Part shown: positions 53,233-60,913 of the stretch, one piece after another
Numbering within the stretch: position 1 is the first letter of the stretch
Layout of the letters: every line of letters begins with the position of its first letter
Assembly (NCBI GenBank): GCA_019244185.1
Contig: JAFATB010000006.1
Span: 384,001 to 448,000, forward strand
Source: Acidobacteriota bacterium
GTDB taxonomy: Bacteria > Acidobacteriota > Thermoanaerobaculia > Gp7-AA8
Reading direction: 5' to 3'
DNA: 64,000 nt
The notes under the pieces: generated by a model
The model's database searches: none
Told to the model about the DNA's origin: nothing
What the model saw: only the letters and a program-made list of their open reading frames with translations
Program-made: the position numbers and the translations under genes

Positions 53233-54261
53233 GTGTCCGCGAACTGGCTGCTGTACGGCGCGAACGGCTACACCGGCGAGCTGATCGCGCGCGAGGCCGT
53301 GCGCCGCGGCATCCATCCGATTCTCGCCGGCCGCAGCACGGAGAAGATCGAGCCGCTCGCGCGCGAGCTGCAATGCGAATCGCGCGTCTTCGACGTCCGT
53401 AAGCCCGATCTGCGCGGCGTTGCGCTCGTGCTCCACTGCGCCGGGCCGTTCGTGCACACCAGCGCGCCGATGGTCGACGCGTGTCTCGCGTCGGGCGTGC
53501 ACTATCTCGACATCACCGGCGAGATCGACGTCTTCGAAGCAGTGCTCGCGCGCGATGCCGAGGCGAAGCAGCGCAACGTGGCGCTCCTCCCCGGCGTCGG
53601 CTTCGACGTCGTTCCCACCGACTGTCTCGGCGCGATGCTGCATGCGCGCATGCCCGACGCCGTCGAGCTGTGGCTCGCGTTCGACTCGCGCCGCGGCGGC
53701 ATCAGCCGCGGCACGCTGCGCACGATGCTCGAAGGCCTGGGCAAGGGCGGCGCGATTCGCCGCGACGGGCAGATCGTGCACGTGCCGCTCCTGTACGACG
53801 TCCGCGAAATCCCGTACGCAAGCGGCCCGCGCCTGTCGATGACGATTCCATGGGGCGACGTCGCGACGGCGTTTCATACGACCGGCATTCCGAACATCCG
53901 CGTCTACAACGCCACGCCGCCGTCGACCATCCGCCGCCTGCGCCGCACGCGCTATTTCCTGCCGCTGATGCGCATCACGCCGGTCAAGCGCGCGATGCAG
54001 TGGATGTCGACGCGCAACCGCACGGGACCGGGCGAAACGCAGCGCGCGCAATCGCGCGTCGAGTTGTGGGGACGCGTCGTCAATGCACGCGGCGAAGAAG
54101 CCACAATGACCCTGTCGACGCCCGAGGGATATTCATTCACCGTGCTGTCATCGTTGGAGGCGGTGCGGAGAATTCTGCAGGAGCCGCGCGCCGGCGCATT
54201 CACACCCGCGCGCGCCTTTGGAATGAATTTCGTCAATGAGGTATTGACAAACGCACAATAG
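53233..54261 (+). CDS. Saccharopine dehydrogenase-like NAD(P)-binding oxidoreductase
   Basis: YGANGYTG, HCAGPF, HYLDITGE, GFDVVPTD, GAFTPA. Confidence 0.9.
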   Translation: MSANWLLYGANGYTGELIAREAVRRGIHPILAGRSTEKIEPLARELQCESRVFDVRKPDLRGVALVLHCAGPFVHTSAPMVDACLASGVHYLDITGEIDVFEAVLARDAEAKQRNVALLPGVGFDVVPTDCLGAMLHARMPDAVELWLAFDSRRGGISRGTLRTMLEGLGKGGAIRRDGQIVHVPLLYDVREIPYASGPRLSMTIPWGDVATAFHTTGIPNIRVYNATPPSTIRRLRRTRYFLPLMRITPVKRAMQWMSTRNRTGPGETQRAQSRVELWGRVVNARGEEATMTLSTPEGYSFTVLSSLEAVRRILQEPRAGAFTPARAFGMNFVNEVLTNAQ

Positions 54262-54276
54262 GCGCGCTATTGTGCG
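54244..54276 (+). promoter_or_regulatory. Sigma70-like promoter overlapped by a 10-bp inverted-repeat operator
   Basis: TTGACA 54244-54249; TATTGT 54268-54273; CGCACAATAG-N5-CTATTGTGCG. Confidence 0.7.
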
Positions 54277-54300
54277 CCACCCTTACAAACGACGACGAAC

Positions 54301-54381
54301 ATGATGACCAAACGCGAACAGAGATATTGGATCGGTCGACCGGAATTTCCGGGAACCGCCGGAGGTACGCTCGTGCCCTAG
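54301..54381 (+). CDS. Putative attenuator leader peptide MMTKREQRYWIGRPEFPGTAGGTLVP
   Basis: 26-codon ORF just downstream of the promoter; its 3' end is one strand of the antiterminator. Confidence 0.65.
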   Translation: MMTKREQRYWIGRPEFPGTAGGTLVP

Positions 54382-54409
54382 CCGATGCTCAGCATCCGCT
54401 CATTGCACG

Positions 54410-54448
54410 AGCCCCTTCGGTCATGACAGCCGAAGGGGCTTTTTGTTT
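54410..54448 (+). terminator. Intrinsic terminator (attenuator)
   Basis: AGCCCCTTCGG/CCGAAGGGGCT 11-bp stem + TTTTTGTTT. Confidence 0.88.
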
Positions 54449-54556
54449 GGTTTTTACTGAATTTCGAGGATGAGACCGTCCGGGTCCGGCGGCGCGCAGG
54501 TCGCTGACACTGTCGCGTTCCGTGTACGGGTTCTGACGAAGGAAGGTTGATTCCTG

Positions 54557-54629
54557 CCATGTGTAGCTCATTGGGTAGAGCGCAGGACTGATAATCCTGG
54601 GGTAGCGGGTTCGAATCCCGCCACAACCA
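54557..54629 (+). tRNA. tRNA-like RNA, anticodon GAT (Ile), with a defective acceptor stem (pseudo-tRNA or Y-RNA-like)
   Basis: Intact D arm GCTC/GAGC, anticodon arm CAGGA-CTGATAA-TCCTG, T arm GCGGG-TTCGAAT-CCCGC; acceptor CCATGTG/CACAACC pairs only 4 of 7. Confidence 0.8.
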
Positions 54630-54644
54630 TCCTTACACGCCGAC

Positions 54645-54867
54645 TGACCGCCGTTAGCGGTCACCGGCCGCGGCGTCGAATCGCGGTCAAGCCTGCCGGC
54701 GCTTCTGTAATGGCGCACCGGCAAGCGCGGAAGGAGCTCTGCAGCGCGCGTGCAGCGCGCAATGCGCTCCCACAATGCGGTGCGACGTCATTGTGGGAGC
54801 GCGCGTGGCGGCGCAGCGCTCCGCTCTGTAACGCGTGGCTTTTCCGCGCATTGGGCGCCCGGCCGGT
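54645..54867 (+). ncRNA. Candidate structured RNA or repeat element upstream of the slipin gene
   Basis: Stems TGACCGC/GCGGTCA, ACCGGCCG/CGGCCGGT (54663-54670 / 54860-54867) and 14-bp GCGCTCCCACAATG/CATTGTGGGAGCGC. Confidence 0.45.
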
Positions 54868-54894
54868 CTTATTGAGGAAAGGAGGGACCGAACC

Positions 54895-55995
54895 ATGTTT
54901 CGGCGTATGAAGATTCTTCCGCACGAGCGGGGCCTTCTGTTTCGTGAGGGCGCGTTCGCCGGCGTACTGCGGCCGGGCGTTCATTGGACGTTCGATCCGC
55001 TCCTGAAGCTGCGGCTCTTTGTCGTGTCGCCGCGCAATCCGTGGCTCGACCACCGCGACCTCGACCTCATCGTGAAGTCGGGCAAGCTCGGCGGCGAGGC
55101 CATTGTGGTCGACCTCAAGGACTACGAGCGCGCGCTCGTCTGGATCGACGGCCGCTTCGCGGCGGTGCTCGATACCGGCCTGTACGCGCTGTGGACCGTG
55201 GAGCGCGATGTGCGCGTCGAGATCGTCGACGCGCGGACGATGCGCTTCGACCACGCGGAGCTGCCGGTGATCGTGCGTTCGCGGACGGCGGCGTCCGTGC
55301 TCGAGGTCGTGCATGTGGAGGCCAACCACGCGGGACTGTGGTTCCGCGACGGCGCCTATCAGGCGACGCTCGCTCCGGGCACGTACGCGTTCTGGCGGAA
55401 CGTCGGCAAGCTGCAGGTCCAAATGGTCGATCTCCGCGAGCTGACGCTCGACATCAGCGGTCAGGAGATCATGACGGCCGACAAGGTCACGCTGCGCCTC
55501 AATGCGCTTGTCAACTACCGCGTCACCGATCCGCTGCGGTCGGTCGCGGAGGTCGACGGTGCGGCGCAGGCGCTCTACCGCGCCGCGCAGCTTGCGCTGC
55601 GCGAAGCGGTGGGCGCGAAGGACCTCGACGCGCTGCTCGTCGCGAAGGATGCGCTCGCGGGTGAGCTGTCCGTCGCGATCGCGCCGCGCGCCGCGGAGCT
55701 CGGCCTCACGGTCGTCGCCGCGGGTGTCCGCGACGTCATCCTGCCGGGCGACATGAAGGAGCTGATGAACAAGGTGACCGAGGCGAAGAAGGCCGCGGAG
55801 GCATCGCTGATCACGCGCCGTGAGGAGACGGCGGCGATGCGGATGCAGGCCAACACCGCGAAGATCCTCGAGGCGAGTCCGACGCTGATGAAGCTGAAGG
55901 AGCTCGAGGTGCTCGAGAAGGTCGCGCACAAGGCGAACCTCACCGTGGTCCTCGGCGACGAGGGCCTGGCGGACAAGGTCGTCAAGCTGCTGTAA
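54895..55995 (+). CDS. Slipin family (SPFH/Band 7) protein with repeated N-terminal beta modules
   Basis: SD AAGGAGG; HERGLLFR.G repeats, VDLRE....SGQEIMT.DKV.LR.N, RDVILPG, RREETAA.R...NTA. Confidence 0.9.
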   Translation: MFRRMKILPHERGLLFREGAFAGVLRPGVHWTFDPLLKLRLFVVSPRNPWLDHRDLDLIVKSGKLGGEAIVVDLKDYERALVWIDGRFAAVLDTGLYALWTVERDVRVEIVDARTMRFDHAELPVIVRSRTAASVLEVVHVEANHAGLWFRDGAYQATLAPGTYAFWRNVGKLQVQMVDLRELTLDISGQEIMTADKVTLRLNALVNYRVTDPLRSVAEVDGAAQALYRAAQLALREAVGAKDLDALLVAKDALAGELSVAIAPRAAELGLTVVAAGVRDVILPGDMKELMNKVTEAKKAAEASLITRREETAAMRMQANTAKILEASPTLMKLKELEVLEKVAHKANLTVVLGDEGLADKVVKLL

Positions 55996-56002
55996 CGACG
56001 CA

Positions 56003-56036
56003 GGGAGGGCAGGCCGTCCAGCGGGCCTGCCCTCCC
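56003..56036. repeat. 13-bp GC hairpin without U tract between slipin and the next gene
   Basis: GGGAGGGCAGGCC/GGCCTGCCCTCCC. Confidence 0.75.
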
Positions 56037-56051
56037 GAGGTAAAGAAGGAG

Positions 56052-56690
56052 ATGAACAAAGACAAAGTTCGGGACATGATCCGCAGCATCCTGCCGTCGA
56101 AGGCGCGGGTGGGCGCGCGGTTCGGCAAGAGGTTCGAAAAGCGGCGCGTGCGCCACGCCATTCGCGCGGCGTTGCGCGCGGGAACGTTCGACGCCGATCT
56201 GCGGCGCGACGCGGACCTCTCGACGGTCGTCTGGTGGCGGCGCACCGCCGACAAGCTCCACCCTTTCATGCGCTGGTGCCGCGCGCGCACCGCGGGCATG
56301 ACGCCGGAGGAAGCGCTCGGCTACGTGCGCGGCCTGTTGCCGCGGAATCTCATCGGCGATCACGCGTACGGACACTGGGAAGCGGTCGTGCGGCCGTACA
56401 TGGGCCGGCTGCCGACAGTTCGCACGCGGCTCGACGTCGGGACGCTCTGCACGCGTTTGCGCGCGGCGTACGAGCGCGATCCGTCGCTCGTCGGGATGTT
56501 GAACGCCGCGATCAAGAGCCGTATCGCATTCGACGAACCACGCCGGCTGCTGTTCGGCGTGCACGACATCGACGCCTTCGCACGCGACGCGCTCCGACGC
56601 GGGAGCATCGAGCTCGATTGCGCGATGGCAATCATGGAAGAGATCGAAGGGCGGCCGAACGGCCGCCCTTCCCATTTTCGCGCCGCGTGA
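56052..56690 (+). CDS. Basic hypothetical protein (212 aa)
   Basis: SD AAGGAG; Arg/Lys-rich N-terminus; no family recognised. Confidence 0.75.
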   Translation: MNKDKVRDMIRSILPSKARVGARFGKRFEKRRVRHAIRAALRAGTFDADLRRDADLSTVVWWRRTADKLHPFMRWCRARTAGMTPEEALGYVRGLLPRNLIGDHAYGHWEAVVRPYMGRLPTVRTRLDVGTLCTRLRAAYERDPSLVGMLNAAIKSRIAFDEPRRLLFGVHDIDAFARDALRRGSIELDCAMAIMEEIEGRPNGRPSHFRAA

Positions 56691-56713
56691 TATAGCGTTC
56701 CCTCAACGAACCC

Positions 56714-59700
56714 ATGTCCCTCGATCGCTTTCATCCCGTCCTCCAACGCTGGTTCTCTGACACCCTCGGCACTCCGACACCCGCGCAGCAGCAAGGGTGG
56801 TCCGCCATCCGCGAGCGCCGTCACACGCTCATCGCCGCGCCGACCGGCTCGGGTAAAACGCTCGCGGCGTTTCTGACCGCGCTCGACGACCTTTTCGTCG
56901 AAGCGCTGACCGCGCCGCTGCCTGATGAAGTGCGCGTCGTCTACGTCTCGCCGCTGAAAGCGCTCAGCGCCGACATCCACAAAAATCTCGCCGAGCCGCG
57001 CCACGGAATCCGCCGCATCGCGGAAGAACTGAACATCGACGCGCGCATCACGGCCGGCGTGCGCACCGGCGACACGACCTCGAGCGAACGCGCGGCGATG
57101 CTGAAGACGCCGCCGCACATCCTCGTCACGACGCCGGAGTCGCTCTACCTCCTGCTCACCGCCGAGCGCAGCCGCAACATGCTGCGCAGCGTGCGCACCG
57201 TGATCGTCGACGAGATTCACGCCGTGATCGGCACGCGCCGCGGCGCGCACCTCGCGCTCACGCTCGAACGCCTGCAACACGTCGCCGAAGCGCCGCTCCT
57301 GCGTATCGGACTCTCCGCGACGCAGAAGCCGATCGAAGCCGTCGCGCGCTATCTCACCGGCGGCGGCGACTGCACGATCGTCGACGAAGGCCACCGCCGC
57401 GCGATGGACCTCACGCTCGAGGTGCCGCGCTCGCCGCTCGAAGCGGTGATGTCCGCGGAAGTGTGGGAGGAGTATTACGACGCGCTGGTGCGGCTCATCG
57501 AGTCGCATCGCACGACGCTCGTCTTCGTGAACACGCGCAAGATGGCCGAGCGCGTCGCGCGTCACCTCAGCGATCGCCTCGGCGAAGACGCGGTGACCGC
57601 GCACCACGGCAGTCTCTCGAAAGAGAACCGTCTCGACGCGGAGACGCGGCTCAAAACCGGTCAGCTGAAAGCGCTCGTCGCGACGGCGTCGCTGGAGCTC
57701 GGCATCGACATCGGCCACGTCGATCTGGTCTGCCAGCTCGGCTCGCCGCACCGCATCGCCACGCTCCTGCAGCGCGTCGGCCGCTCGGGACACACCGTCT
57801 CCGGGCTGCCGAAAGGACGCGTCTTTCCAACCTCGCGCGACGATCTCTTTGAATGCGCGGCGCTGCTGCGCGCGGTCAAGCGCGGCGAGCTCGATCAGAT
57901 CGTCACGCACGACGCCCCGCTCGACGTGCTCGCACAACAACTCGTCGCCGAATCGTCGTGCGACGACTACGCGGAAGACGCGCTCTTCGCGCTGGCGAAA
58001 CGCGCGTGGCCGTACCGCGCGCTCGAACGCGGCGCGTTCGACGACGTCGTGAAGATGATGGCCGACGGCTTCGCCACGAAGCGCGGACGCCGCGGCGCGC
58101 TCATGCATCGCGACGAAGTGCACGGCAACGTGCGCGGACGCCGCGGCTCGCGCCTGCTCGCGCTCACGTCCGGCGGTGCGATCCCGGAAGTCGCCGACTA
58201 CCGCGTCGTGCAGGAGCCGGACGAGACGTTCATTGGAACGCTCAACGAGGACTTCGCGATCGAGAGCAACATCGGCGACGTCTTCCAGCTCGGCAACACT
58301 TCGTGGCGCGTGCTGCAGGTGTCGGGCGGCGTCGTGCGCGTCGCGGATGCGCACGGCGAGCCGCCGAGCATTCCGTTTTGGCTCGGCGAAGCGCCCGCGC
58401 GGAGCGACGAGCTGTCGCGCGCGGTGAGCTCGCTGCGCGCCGATCTCGAGCCGCTGCTCGACGATCGCGAGGCCGCGATCGCGTGGCTCGTCGACGCGTG
58501 CGGGATTCCGCGCGCCGCCGCCGAGCCGCTCATCGAGTACCTCGCCGAATCGCACCGCGTCCTCGGCACACTCCCGACGCAACAGACGCTCGTCCTCGAG
58601 CGCTTCTTCGACGAGTCGGGCGGCATGCAGCTCATCCTCCACGCGCCGTTCGGCAGCCGCATCAACAAGGCGTGGGGGCTCGCGCTGCGCAAGCGCTTCT
58701 GCCGGCAGTTCGATTTCGAATTGCAGGCCGCGGCGACGGAGGACGCGATCCTCTTGTCGCTCGGCCCACAGCATTCGTTTCCGCTCGCGGATGTCTTCCG
58801 CTATCTGCATCCCGCGACCGCGCGCGACGTGCTCGTGCAGGCCTTCCTCGACGCGCCGGTGTGGCAGACGCGCTGGCGGTGGAACGCGACGATCTCGCTG
58901 GCGGTGCCGCGCAATCGCAACGGCAAGAAGATCGCGCCGCAGTTGCAGCGCACGCTCGCCGACGATCTGATGGCCGCGGTGTTCCCAGACGCCGCAGCGT
59001 GCTTCGAGAACATCGGCGGCGACCGCAAGATCCCCGATCATCCGCTTGTCAACCAAGCCGTGCGCGACTGCCTCGAGGAAGCGATGGACTTCGACGGCCT
59101 CGCGCGCGTGCTGACCCGCATTCACGCGGACGAGCTGACGCTCGTCGCGCGCGATACGCCCGAGCCGTCGCCGCTCGCGCACGAGATCCTCAACGCGCAG
59201 CCGTACGCGTTTCTCGATGATGCGCCGCTCGAGGAGCGCCGCACGAACGCGGTCTACACGCGCCGCGTCGCCGACGCCGCGTCCGCGCGCGAGCTCGGCG
59301 CGCTCGACCTCGCGGCGATCGAACGCGTGCGCGACGAAGAGCGGCCCGATCCGCGCGATGCGGACGAGCTGCACGACGCGTTGCTGACGTTCGGCTTTCT
59401 CACGGACGAGGACGCGCCGCACGAGCTCTTCGACGCGCTCGCCGCGGCGAAACGCGCGACGCGCGTGCACGGACTCTGGTTCGCCGCGGAGCGCCTGCCG
59501 GAGCTCCTGGCCATTCATCGCGTCGAGACGACGATCGCGCCGCCGGCATCGCGCCTCACGCGCACGTGGTCGCGCGAGGAAGCGCTCGTCGAGTTGCTGC
59601 GCGGACGGCTTTCGCTCGTCGGACCGGCGACGTCTGACGCGCTCGCGTCGCTGCTCGCGGTACCGCAATCGAACGTCGACGCCGCGCTGCTCGCGCTCGA

Positions 59701-60913
59701 AGGCGAGGGCGCGATTCTGCGCGGCAACTTCACGCCCGGCGCGTCGCAGCTCGAATGGTGCGACCGGCGCCTGCTCGCGCGCATCCACCGCTACACGCTC
59801 AATCGTCTGCGCGCGGAGATCGAGCCGGTCACCGCCGCCGACTTCACGCGTTTCCTCTTCGCGTGGCAGCACGTGACGCCGTCGTCGCGCCTCAGTGGCA
59901 TCGATGGACTGCAGGAGCTGCTCGCCCAACTCGACGGCTTCGAACTCGCCGCAAACGCGTGGGAGCGCTCGGTGCTGCCCGCGCGCATGGACCGCTACGA
60001 CGCGTCGATGCTCGACACGCTCTGCTTCGCCGGCGTGGCCGGCTGGGCGCGCGTCTCACCGCCGACCGGCGCCGCGCTGCCCGTCGGCGCGACGCCGATC
60101 GCGCTGTTTCTCCGCGAGCACGCGGCGACGTGGCAGTCGCTGCGCGAGACGGCGCCGGTCGCGTTGTCCGAACAAGCGCAACGCGTCGTCGACACGCTTC
60201 GCGCGCGCGGCGCGTCGTTCGCGCGCGAGCTCGCGGCGCTCTGCGAGCTCGACGAAGCCGCGCTCGAACGCGCGCTCGGTGAGCTGGTCTGCGCGGGACT
60301 CGTGACGTCCGACGGCTTCGCCGGTCTGCGCTCGCTCGTGCGCGCGTCGCACGAGAAACGCGCGCGCACCGACGTCGCGGGACGGTGGTCGCTGCTCGCC
60401 TCCGACGCGAACGGCGACGACGCGCTGGAGCTGCAGGCGCGCACGTTCCTCCGCCGCTACGGCATCGTCTTCCGCCGCCTCCTCGCGCGCGAGTCGAACG
60501 CCGCGCCGTGGCGCGAGCTCGCACGCGTCTACCGCCGCATGGAAGCGCGCGGCGACCTGCGCGGCGGCCGCTTCGTCGCCGGCATGCCCGGCGAACAGTT
60601 CGCGCTCCCCGACGCCGTCGAACGCCTGCGCGAGATCCGCCGCACCCCGCACGACGGCACGCTGGTCGTGCTCTCCGCCGCCGACCCGCTCAACCTCACC
60701 GGCACCACCTCGCCCGGCGATCGCATCCGCGCCACACCCGGCACGCGCATCGCGTACCGCGACGGCGTGCCGGTGTCCGTGATGGAAGGCGACTACGTGC
60801 GCCCGCTCACGGACATCGAATCGAACGACGCGCTCACCGTCGCCGCCGCGCTCGCGGGGCGTGCGGTCGCGGCGGGGCGGGGGTGGGTGGGGCGGGGGTG
60901 GGTGGGGCGGTGA
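56714..60913 (+). CDS. lhr: Lhr-family ATP-dependent helicase with extended C-terminal domain
   Basis: APTGSGKT, YVSPLKAL, TTPESL, DEIH, LSAT, SLELGID, QRVGRSGH; RGGRFV..GEQFA C-terminus. Confidence 0.92.
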   Translation: MSLDRFHPVLQRWFSDTLGTPTPAQQQGWSAIRERRHTLIAAPTGSGKTLAAFLTALDDLFVEALTAPLPDEVRVVYVSPLKALSADIHKNLAEPRHGIRRIAEELNIDARITAGVRTGDTTSSERAAMLKTPPHILVTTPESLYLLLTAERSRNMLRSVRTVIVDEIHAVIGTRRGAHLALTLERLQHVAEAPLLRIGLSATQKPIEAVARYLTGGGDCTIVDEGHRRAMDLTLEVPRSPLEAVMSAEVWEEYYDALVRLIESHRTTLVFVNTRKMAERVARHLSDRLGEDAVTAHHGSLSKENRLDAETRLKTGQLKALVATASLELGIDIGHVDLVCQLGSPHRIATLLQRVGRSGHTVSGLPKGRVFPTSRDDLFECAALLRAVKRGELDQIVTHDAPLDVLAQQLVAESSCDDYAEDALFALAKRAWPYRALERGAFDDVVKMMADGFATKRGRRGALMHRDEVHGNVRGRRGSRLLALTSGGAIPEVADYRVVQEPDETFIGTLNEDFAIESNIGDVFQLGNTSWRVLQVSGGVVRVADAHGEPPSIPFWLGEAPARSDELSRAVSSLRADLEPLLDDREAAIAWLVDACGIPRAAAEPLIEYLAESHRVLGTLPTQQTLVLERFFDESGGMQLILHAPFGSRINKAWGLALRKRFCRQFDFELQAAATEDAILLSLGPQHSFPLADVFRYLHPATARDVLVQAFLDAPVWQTRWRWNATISLAVPRNRNGKKIAPQLQRTLADDLMAAVFPDAAACFENIGGDRKIPDHPLVNQAVRDCLEEAMDFDGLARVLTRIHADELTLVARDTPEPSPLAHEILNAQPYAFLDDAPLEERRTNAVYTRRVADAASARELGALDLAAIERVRDEERPDPRDADELHDALLTFGFLTDEDAPHELFDALAAAKRATRVHGLWFAAERLPELLAIHRVETTIAPPASRLTRTWSREEALVELLRGRLSLVGPATSDALASLLAVPQSNVDAALLALEGEGAILRGNFTPGASQLEWCDRRLLARIHRYTLNRLRAEIEPVTAADFTRFLFAWQHVTPSSRLSGIDGLQELLAQLDGFELAANAWERSVLPARMDRYDASMLDTLCFAGVAGWARVSPPTGAALPVGATPIALFLREHAATWQSLRETAPVALSEQAQRVVDTLRARGASFARELAALCELDEAALERALGELVCAGLVTSDGFAGLRSLVRASHEKRARTDVAGRWSLLASDANGDDALELQARTFLRRYGIVFRRLLARESNAAPWRELARVYRRMEARGDLRGGRFVAGMPGEQFALPDAVERLREIRRTPHDGTLVVLSAADPLNLTGTTSPGDRIRATPGTRIAYRDGVPVSVMEGDYVRPLTDIESNDALTVAAALAGRAVAAGRGWVGRGWVGR
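60874..60910 (+). repeat. G-rich 15-bp tandem duplication at the lhr 3' end
   Basis: GGGGCGGGGGTGGGT x2 + GGGGCGG, encoding GRGWV x2. Confidence 0.8.

Follow-up and report, generated by a model that had tools for sequence, protein, structure and literature searches.

In a 64,000-nucleotide (nt) stretch of the genome of an Acidobacteriota bacterium of the class Thermoanaerobaculia (assembly GCA_019244185.1, contig JAFATB010000006.1, forward-strand positions 384,001 to 448,000; hereafter the window), a gene for an SPFH/Band-7 protein is preceded by a structured RNA, the middle part of which resembles a tRNA. This locus is the Thermoanaerobaculia version of the module of SPFH/Band-7 protein and b7a-tRNA (for band-7-associated tRNA) that was predicted in 2016, placed in a new regulatory setting and containing an RNA larger than this name implies. 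The three-domain RNA and its strict partnership with this SPFH subfamily are firmly supported, and so is the link to RNA repair in relatives, since the module sits inside rtcA/rtcB operons in Proteobacteria and some Planctomycetota.

Read 5' to 3', the locus comprises a sigma-70-like promoter, a 26-codon leader open reading frame (ORF), a terminator, a three-part RNA of about 400 nt, the SPFH gene, the gene of a basic protein, and Lhr (Table 1), and the SPFH module probably forms one transcription unit here. Every feature listed in a first-pass annotation of the window was borne out, at or within a few bases of the positions assigned there. When 124 genomes of the same family were searched at the DNA level, 28 matched at E <= 1e-8, and 24 loci were fetched and oriented. 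In 20 of these 24 loci the full order was found, with the promoter, short ORF, and terminator followed by a conserved block, by one or two tRNA-like elements, by a further conserved block, and finally by the SPFH gene, and because it recurs in so many related loci of the family, the arrangement is not due to chance. Three of the four remaining loci are genuine tRNA-Asn genes in unrelated contexts, and locus L023 holds part of block B and a tRNA-like element without an SPFH gene within reach.

Table 1. Positions of the features of the module and its surroundings in the window
Feature	Position	Strand	Description
Sigma-70-like promoter	54244-54273	+	TTGACA 54244-54249, 18-nt spacer, TATTGT 54268-54273; 10 of 12 consensus matches
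Palindrome, possible operator	54252-54276	.	CGCACAATAG-GCGCG-CTATTGTGCG; overlaps the -10 element
Leader ORF	54301-54381	+	26 codons, MMTKREQRYWIGRPEFPGTAGGTLVP then stop
Switch strand in the last leader codons	54359-54375	+	CCGGAGG 54359-54365, GCTCGTG 54369-54375
Intrinsic terminator	54409-54451	+	Stem 54409-54441, 13 bp; 7-nt loop; T-run
RNA domain B	54471-54553	+	Closing helix P1, variable hairpin P2, small hairpin P3, conserved joining strands
tRNA-like domain	54560-54625	+	D-arm, anticodon arm (loop CUGAUAA), T-arm, 4-bp acceptor stem
Small hairpin	54646-54662	+	GACCGC-CGTTA-GCGGTC; conserved, opens the 3' RNA block
RNA domain D	54663-54867	+	Closed by long-range helix 54663-54675 / 54856-54867; then U-rich tail and Shine-Dalgarno (SD) sequence
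SPFH/Band-7 gene	54895-55995	+	366 aa; SD AAGGAGG from 54879; 140-aa N-terminal extension and stomatin-like core
GC-rich hairpin	56004-56035	+	12 bp, GGAGGGCAGGCC...GGCCTGCCCTCC; between the SPFH and basic-protein genes; no T-run
Basic-protein gene	56052-56690	+	212 aa; preceded by AAGGAG; uncharacterized family
Lhr helicase gene	56714-60913		Full length, 1399 aa; domains DEAD, Helicase_C, DEAD_assoc, and Lhr winged helix; begins 24 nt past the basic-protein gene

The three-domain RNA and its SPFH partner

The RNA consists of three folded parts, namely a closed domain B, a tRNA-like domain, and a closed domain D of 205 nt. The tRNA-like RNA had initially been described as an item separate from a structured segment of about 220 nt; instead, it is the middle domain of a larger conserved RNA. 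The joining strands of domain B, GGCCGGCGGCGC, GTTCCG, and GGGTTCTGACGAA, are strongly conserved, and in RNA form GGCCRGCGGCGC, GUUCCG, and GGGUUCUGAC are nearly invariant. Three helices were proposed by eye on a MAFFT alignment of 49 sequences (A1), in which the window's own row is slightly out of register, and the boundaries of domain B are therefore to be taken as approximate. In this alignment, 77.8% of the cells pair, 23 of 30 pairs changed on both sides, and covariation reached 0.374, compared to at most 0.152 with the partners slid and with none of 500 shuffles attaining it. A hammerhead-like motif, CUGANGA, in domain B was considered and discarded, as one clade has another base in place of its G (CUAACGA) and matches to ribozyme models were not found.

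The 251-nt segment 54630-54880 folds with -149.2 kcal/mol (z = -5.89, 0 of 200 shuffles as good), and its minimum-energy fold contains the helix closing domain D. For 32 orthologues from outside the family (alignment A4), RNAalifold provided a structure of nested long-range helices with 36 pairs in well-occupied columns, 23 of which changed on both sides; 92% of the cells were paired, and covariation amounted to 0.431 versus at most 0.107 with slid partners and was reached in 0 of 500 shuffles, all of these values referring to a structure derived from the same alignment it was scored on. The closing-helix sequences vary by phylum, with complementarity being kept: Planctomycetota combine CCCGAGGG-N-GGCGG with CCGCC-N-CCCGAGGG, including a tandem G-A mismatch, Vicinamibacteria GGUCUCCGGGG with CCCCGGAGGCC, and the window ACCGGCCGCGGCG with CGCCCGGCCGGU. 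As judged by reading, a U-rich run follows the 3' strand of this helix in most of the 32 sequences. Since the closing helix ends only 12 nt from the SD sequence in the window, the SPFH gene must be cotranscribed with the RNA. The motif GACTGACCGC was also detected after the tRNA-like elements of a Photobacterium locus (L123).

Apart from the tRNA model, no Rfam family matched at its gathering score in the 64-kb window, and a search of positions 54000-57000 at E <= 1 yielded nothing relevant, with no Y-RNA, GOLLD, ROOL, OLE, or riboswitch class. A ykkC-like or other known riboswitch was dismissed on the same grounds.

The SPFH protein matches Pfam Band_7 (PF01145) with residues 141-311 (E = 7.9e-34), and a PDB search aligned residues 141-352 with stomatin chains of solved structure (E = 1e-31), several of these entries holding 16 such chains. 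The first 140 residues gave weak, partial Band_7 matches. Pfam identified neither a membrane anchor domain nor a Vault repeat in this protein, and no hydrophobic segment was seen on reading its sequence. By analogy with its relatives, the protein may assemble into a soluble ring or cage.

A scan for SPFH relatives in one genome per species returned 483 proteins, and the best 80 loci, with 58-79% identity, were kept. They belong to Thermoanaerobaculia, other Acidobacteriota, Vicinamibacteria, and many Planctomycetota, including the cultured Lacipirellula limnantheis, Bythopirellula polymerisocia, and Adhaeretor mobilis, and one locus each stems from a metagenome-assembled genome (MAG) of Hydrogenedentota, of Alcaligenaceae, and of a deltaproteobacterium. 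The first-pass annotation was prepared to abandon its view of the module should homologous slipin loci lack the leader and tRNA-like element; this check came out in favor of its view. A nucleotide profile built from 20 leaders and scanned upstream of the SPFH genes revealed the tRNA-like element and flanking RNA in 78 of the 80 loci, and in the two loci without an RNA match the sequence upstream is as short as 34 nt (L063) and 122 nt (L087). Beyond Thermoanaerobaculia, the SPFH gene remains accompanied by block B, the tRNA-like element, and block D.

The tRNA-like domain scored 57.9 bits with Rfam RF00005, at model positions 4-67 only, and lacks the hallmarks of a canonical decoding tRNA, a 7-bp acceptor stem and detection by a gene finder, with ARAGORN reporting no tRNA in the entire window. 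In 53 orthologues, conservation amounts to 80-99% in most columns of the D and T arms and to about 40-60% in those of the anticodon loop, which varies in length and often lacks U33. Conservation is thus lowest in the anticodon loop, and for this reason the element is no decoding tRNA. The anticodon stem shows complementary changes on both strands (CAGGA/UCCUG, CCAGA/UCUGG, CCGAG/CUCGG, and GCGUA/UACGC), and at least thirteen different anticodons were called by ARAGORN at this position, including gct, aag, ttg, cat, gat, gtt, agg, gaa, tac, aac, atg, ttt, and gca, in addition to irregular anticodons of 2 to 4 nt. The acceptor stems of the orthologous elements have 3-7 bp, and CCA is not kept, as opposed to 43 of the 55 ARAGORN tRNAs of this genome ending in CCA. 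In four Thermoanaerobaculia loci (L041, L044, L048, and L083), the tRNA-like domain is little more than a T-arm hairpin, with block B and the SPFH gene being kept.

These data make it extremely unlikely that the element is a functional or recently decayed decoding tRNA, e.g., tRNA-Ile(GAU), left beside the SPFH gene as a remnant of an array or integration site without function. Some properties of the window are reminiscent of such a tRNA: its loop has the regular 7 nt with U33 and A37, CACA-A-CCA follows the T-stem, tRNA-Asn is the closest genuine tRNA, and the Planctomycetota element sits at the end of real tRNA arrays. Moreover, the 26-contig assembly (G000) lacks both tRNA-Ile(GAU) and tRNA-Ala(UGC) according to ARAGORN, and the window element carries a GAU loop. 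However, genes for these two tRNAs usually lie inside rRNA operons, and the missing ones are probably located in an unassembled rRNA operon. Rejection by ARAGORN, an acceptor stem of 4 instead of 7 bp, the many anticodons and 2- to 4-nt calls, the lack of U33 in many orthologues and of a retained CCA, and the constant position between two covarying RNA domains upstream of the same SPFH gene all speak against decoding. A tRNA pseudogene or integration scar was ruled out, as the D and T arms are intact upstream of the same gene across phyla.

The proximity of domain D to the SD sequence raises another possibility, that the long RNA is a purely cis-acting 5' leader of the SPFH mRNA and no stable ribonucleoprotein is formed. 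Domains B and D would then respond to a ligand, to a protein, or to some signal related to tRNA, the tRNA-like part would be a processing signal for RNase P/RNase Z or a stabilizing signal, and the closing helix of D with the U-rich tail, or a local hairpin in the 3' strand, would constitute a second terminator or a switch masking the SD sequence. In line with this, domain D of the window ends 12 nt before the SD sequence, UCCUUA (54630-54635) pairs with UGAGGA (54872-54877) beside it in the minimum-energy fold, and, whereas most of the 32 sequences read have a U-rich run after the closing helix, some (L084 and L092) can instead form a local hairpin followed by UUUUU. Domain B, being closed, about 100 nt long, and equipped with invariant joining strands, also resembles riboswitch aptamers. 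However, neither domain matches any Rfam family, the conservation of loop sequences across phyla exceeds what most leaders need, and the RNA comes after tRNA arrays whose processing presumably yields individual RNAs. In several Planctomycetota (L096, L100, and L108), more than 100 nt of unrelated sequence separates domain D from the SPFH start, which fits a separate RNA gene better. We therefore regard a role confined to that of a leader as rather unlikely.

A putative ribosome-sensing leader

The promoter is the only such site in a scan of positions 53800-57200 (shuffled-sequence mean, 0.3), and TTGAC occurs at the equivalent place in 21 of 21 Thermoanaerobaculia leaders. Its -10 element is followed by a GC-rich discriminator, GCGCCACCC at 54274-54282 in the window and GCGCCACCC, CCGCCGCCC, or CCGCGTCCC across the 21 leaders. 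The sequence GCGCCACC is also the discriminator of Escherichia coli rrnB P1, a promoter under stringent control, which we mention as a likeness only.

In 20 of 20 leaders, an ORF starting with ATG has its end 27-35 nt ahead of the terminator's 5' arm, and the shortest ORF of this kind has 21-32 codons. In most relatives, the ATG lies about 10-13 nt past the -10 element, so that the ORF would be nearly leaderless. Unlike the nucleotide motif and the end-point of the ORF, the leader peptides are not conserved among the 20 leaders, and the GGAGG core in the last codons is kept as nucleotides but read in two frames, as Ala-Gly-Gly in some genera and Pro-Glu-Val in another. The terminator stem, GCCCCTTCG...CGAAGGGGC, is nearly invariant in 21 leaders.

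In the window, CCGGAGG can pair with CCTTCGG (54414-54420), which belongs to the terminator's 5' arm, and the partner of GCTCGTG is CACGAGC (54406-54412). The bases just 3' of GGAGG covary with those just 5' of the terminator, yielding the extension pairs GCUCGUG/CACGAGC in the window and GCCUCG/CGAGGC, GCUUC/GAAGC, UCGCG/CGCGA, and GCUCUGCG/CGCAGAGC in relatives. Cognate extension pairs had a mean of -6.83 kcal/mol versus -4.50 kcal/mol for noncognate ones, a value reached in 0 of 5000 permutations of related and hence not independent leader sequences, and the cognate pair ranked first or second in 13 of 21 cases. Competition with the terminator is restricted to the short GGAGG:CCUUC pairing of 5-7 bp. 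When the naked RNA of the window and of several relatives is folded, the partner of GGAGG is a segment located further upstream in the ORF, which resembles the classic four-region layout.

It is likely that this leader-ORF switch ahead of the module is ribosome-sensing. Ribosomes translating the leader up to the stop codon would cover CCGGAGG, whereupon the terminator would form and transcription would stop. Ribosomes stalled earlier would leave CCGGAGG and its neighboring bases to pair with the emerging 5' arm of the terminator, and RNA polymerase would read on. Judging from the anatomy of the leader, we infer that a response to ribosome stalling is the most likely logic.

A leader ORF with an attenuator had been proposed on the basis of the window sequence. 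As a short ORF with a terminator, this putative attenuator proved to be conserved in 20 of 20 family leaders, with covarying segments beside the strands that would compete, but is absent outside Thermoanaerobaculia. As the profile match outside this class starts only after the terminator, the attenuator is lineage specific. The cassette of promoter, leader ORF, and terminator was found in 24 of the 124 family genomes, once per genome except for two copies in G136, and at each of the 13 of 25 cassette places checked it precedes the three-part RNA and/or the basic-protein gene. The idea that the anticodon of the tRNA-like element matches a codon of the leader ORF was dropped, given that many loops do not have 7 nt and that Planctomycetota loci have no leader.

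Leader-peptide attenuators are known from trp-type operons and from the ribosome-stalling type of antibiotic-resistance genes found by Term-seq. The leader described here shares with them a short ORF followed by a terminator, an ORF strand that could pair either upstream or with the 5' arm of the terminator, and a fixed stop distance. It differs from them in having neither a run of codons for a single amino acid nor a conserved stall motif, in the shortness of the competing pairing, and in the ORF of most relatives, which would be nearly leaderless.

Alternatively, the terminator might just end a gene for a small peptide or small RNA, and the RNA and SPFH gene might be transcribed from a separate promoter without any attenuation. 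The AT-rich stretch 3' of the terminator, a conserved and loosely -10-like motif (GGCGATAA) upstream of domain B, and the fact that the terminator always forms in equilibrium folds would agree with this. However, the scan of 53800-57200 revealed no second promoter-like site, and the distance from the T-run to GGCGATAA varies from about 5 to 27 nt, so that there is no fixed -35 partner. In L124 and L127, the cassette abuts the start codon of the basic-protein gene, leaving no room for a further promoter, and it is the nucleotide motif and the ORF end-point, not the peptide, that are conserved. A separate promoter is thus very unlikely.

Relation to rtc loci, tRNA arrays, and other RNA-protein systems

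The first-pass annotation associated the SPFH gene and the tRNA-like RNA with modules of rtc RNA-repair loci. This homology is supported by rtc genes following the SPFH gene in relatives. RtcB is encoded within 3 kb downstream of the SPFH gene in 3 of the 80 loci (L074, L101, and L119), with full-length tblastn matches of the SPFH protein at 64%, 58%, and 60% identity, respectively. The gene between SPFH and RtcB encodes RtcA in L074 and, by blastp similarity, also in L101. In L108, the SPFH gene is directly followed by that of RlaP, a member of an RNA-repair nucleotidyltransferase family. Of eight other downstream ORFs tested, six showed no connection to repair, four of them having unrelated Pfam families and two (L083 and L100) no Pfam family, and the last two (L114 and L107) likewise lacked a Pfam family. 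In replicons of Burkholderia cenocepacia (L122) and Photobacterium (L123), a full-length SPFH gene with 36% identity in both cases (residues 1-354 and 1-365, respectively) is situated after tRNA-like elements and before RtcB, and sigma-54 promoter sequences of the TGGCAC type were recognized upstream by reading only.

In their 2016 abstract, Burroughs and Aravind reportedly presented modules that combine SPFH/Band-7 proteins with a new tRNA-like molecule and may provide scaffolding cofactors for RNA repair. According to a 2018 preprint, the predicted b7a-tRNA had not been validated by then (bioRxiv 10.1101/312249). In Pseudomonas aeruginosa, an SPFH gene lies inside the rtc locus (PMC13086221), and the corresponding PA4582 has been called a protein of unknown function (PMC8619066). 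The locus of the window agrees with this module in that the Band-7 gene is directly preceded by a codirectional RNA resembling a tRNA and that RtcA, RtcB, and RlaP are encoded beside orthologues. It differs in several respects: no rtc gene, and hence no adjacent ligase, is near the window's module, a sigma-70-like promoter with a leader-peptide attenuator takes the place of the TGGCAC-type sequences of L122 and L123, and the basic protein is added as a second gene. In addition, two conserved folded domains flank the tRNA-like part here, of which a description from 2016 may exist.

The absence of RtcB, RtcA, and TROVE genes from the window, already pointed out in the first-pass annotation, was corroborated. 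When the genome was checked for rtcB, RtcB was found on another contig (C7), directly after an ORF whose translation reads as archease-like, and no leader like that of the module was found at this RtcB. A search of this genome (98.9% complete) for TROVE (PF05731) gave no match. Neither the palindrome nor the terminator motif has a second occurrence in the genome, each being unique to this locus, and an operator shared with rtcB was ruled out accordingly.

In YrlA, the acceptor-like stem is capped and the RNA ends exit through the anticodon-stem side. In the RNA of the window, by contrast, it is the anticodon arm that is closed, and the strand runs on by way of the acceptor ends. The YrlA/Ro60 (Rsr) system, arranged as rsr-yrlBA-rtcBA, also features a tRNA-mimicking domain in a larger noncoding RNA beside a putative scaffold protein and repair enzymes, but the genome of the window has no TROVE protein and no Y-RNA match. 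The tRNA-mimicking RNAs of the YrlA/Ro60 and Band-7 systems were proposed to be functionally interchangeable in the 2018 preprint (bioRxiv 10.1101/312249).

A more distant parallel is the vault particle, together with stomatin-type SPFH cages. Vaults contain small RNAs, and their protein has an SPFH-like shoulder domain. The common denominator is the stomatin-like core, which is an analogy only, and the SPFH protein of the window differs in matching no Vault-repeat family in Pfam.

In Planctomycetota, the module is embedded in tRNA arrays (e.g., in L061, L100, and L108). Of 42 Planctomycetota loci, 28 had at least five codirectional tRNAs within the 3-kb flanks, compared with 0 of 33 Acidobacteriota loci, with ARAGORN detecting up to 28 tRNAs in one Planctomycetota locus. 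Block B begins right after the last tRNA of the array, and in L061 the array resumes downstream of the SPFH gene. Degenerate tRNA clusters were described in many Planctomycetes (PMC4807772), and long tRNA arrays are horizontally spread, an Anabaena array being induced by translational stress together with rtcB (PMC8421152). The main text of the latter publication does not mention SPFH, band 7, or stomatin. The Planctomycetota module shares its position in codirectional arrays with these systems, but the window contains a single nondecoding tRNA-like element and no array of tandem tRNA genes.

Our literature search found no description of the flanking domains or of an attenuator together with b7a-tRNA/SPFH, and no paper joining a tRNA array with SPFH; the 2016 paper by Burroughs and Aravind and the supplements of PMC8421152 may bear on novelty. 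The two flanking RNA domains, the attenuator restricted to Thermoanaerobaculia, and the embedding in Planctomycetota tRNA arrays may thus be new features.

Accessory features and possible function of the module

The basic protein had been considered part of the module. It follows the SPFH protein in only 4 of the 80 loci and is thus a lineage-specific accessory, but it shares the attenuator cassette. The protein had no match in Pfam, NCBIfam, PADLOC, PHROGs, or the PDB, and cluster names read only "hypothetical protein"; its family comprises 783 representative clusters at E <= 0.001, with conserved motifs including LIGDHAxxHW and HDVDAF. It is encoded in 14 of the 124 family genomes, and in 5 of the 12 loci fetched the SPFH gene lies directly upstream. 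L131 contains the leader, block B, and part of the tRNA-like element followed by the basic-protein gene without SPFH, in L124 and L127 promoter, leader ORF, and terminator directly precede the start codon of this gene, again without SPFH, three of the 12 loci had nothing recognizable, and one was too short. The cassette ahead of the basic-protein gene in loci devoid of SPFH and its double occurrence in G136 argue that the basic protein belongs to the same small regulon, in a lineage-specific manner.

The two cassettes of G136 lie on contig C5 at 220059-220147 and 236879-236920 (L142, L159, and L124), about 16.7 kb apart, one immediately before the basic-protein gene and the other within range of the SPFH locus L049, presumably on the same contig. 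In L125 (G005:C103), the SPFH gene upstream of an intact basic-protein gene gave two partial tblastn segments, residues 1-53 and 204-366, which suggests an internal deletion or decay. An anti-phage defense system was considered and rejected, as PADLOC matched neither protein and PHROGs gave only a weak generic SPFH match. The hairpin between the two genes produced spurious palindromic matches to microRNA models on both strands and may serve RNA stabilization or processing.

Lhr, noted at the outset as the following gene, is not conserved in this position, with its N-terminal 400 residues matching within 3 kb downstream of SPFH in only 4 of the 80 loci. As for the suggested operator, the palindrome is significant in the window, where its 10-bp arms were matched in length by 0 of 200 shuffles, but arms rare in shuffles were found only in a few close relatives: 8 bp in L043 (1 of 200), 6 bp in L041 (14 of 200), and 6 bp in L059 (15 of 200). 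The arms of the other 17 of 21 leaders are at chance level. The Lhr adjacency and the palindromic operator are best treated as local features. L002 (G007:C4) displays tandem CAATTTT-type repeats just 5' of the SPFH SD sequence, between it and domain D. Its promoter is preceded by a perfect and long hairpin, the arms of which measure about 25 bp and which gave spurious microRNA-model matches.

As for the function of the module, we consider it rather probable that the locus is an attenuator-controlled unit that yields the structured RNA along with the SPFH protein, the two acting on damaged tRNA or rRNA. Following readthrough of the leader, both would be coproduced and would probably act jointly on such substrates, as has been suggested for the rtc-linked modules. 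The assembly of RNA and protein and their biochemical role are inferred, and control by ribosome stalling as well as an RNA-protein particle appear plausible. The tRNA-like element may, as put forward in the first-pass annotation, serve the two proteins as a ligand or decoy, and the interpretation given there is supported in part. Several findings weigh against this explanation. RtcB, RtcA, and TROVE are all not encoded near the module in this genome, and no more than 3 of the 80 loci have RtcB within 3 kb. The leader peptides have no stall motif in common, and in one clade (L078, L062, L069, L065, L067, and L044) the extension pairs are no better than noncognate combinations. Furthermore, in the minimum-energy folds of 11 of 11 leaders the terminator coexists with the covarying extension stem, and for this reason the covariation proves the extension stem and not an exclusive antiterminator.

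It is tempting to speculate further, although the following scenario is unlikely to hold as a whole, that the b7a-tRNA is the central domain of an ornate three-domain RNA of about 400-650 nt, present in at least four phyla, which joins an SPFH oligomer of the stomatin type, free of membranes, in a vault-like ribonucleoprotein for sensing or shielding damaged tRNAs. The unconstrained anticodon loop might then result from an arms race with anticodon nucleases, the element being a decoy or sentinel, and in Thermoanaerobaculia the particle and its basic partner might be switched on by stalled ribosomes via an attenuator that replaces the RtcR/sigma-54 control of Proteobacteria.

The role of the SPFH protein and the tRNA look-alike in bacterial rtc loci has been a question since the prediction of 2016. 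The locus described here and its relatives provide a defined RNA with two further covarying domains, and the attenuator hypothesis links the module to translation stress independently of RtcR. In addition, the module is tied to the tRNA arrays of Planctomycetota, which are themselves linked to translational stress. Should a particle indeed be formed by the RNA and the stomatin-type, soluble protein, this would represent a new kind of bacterial ribonucleoprotein and a nonmembrane role of SPFH proteins.

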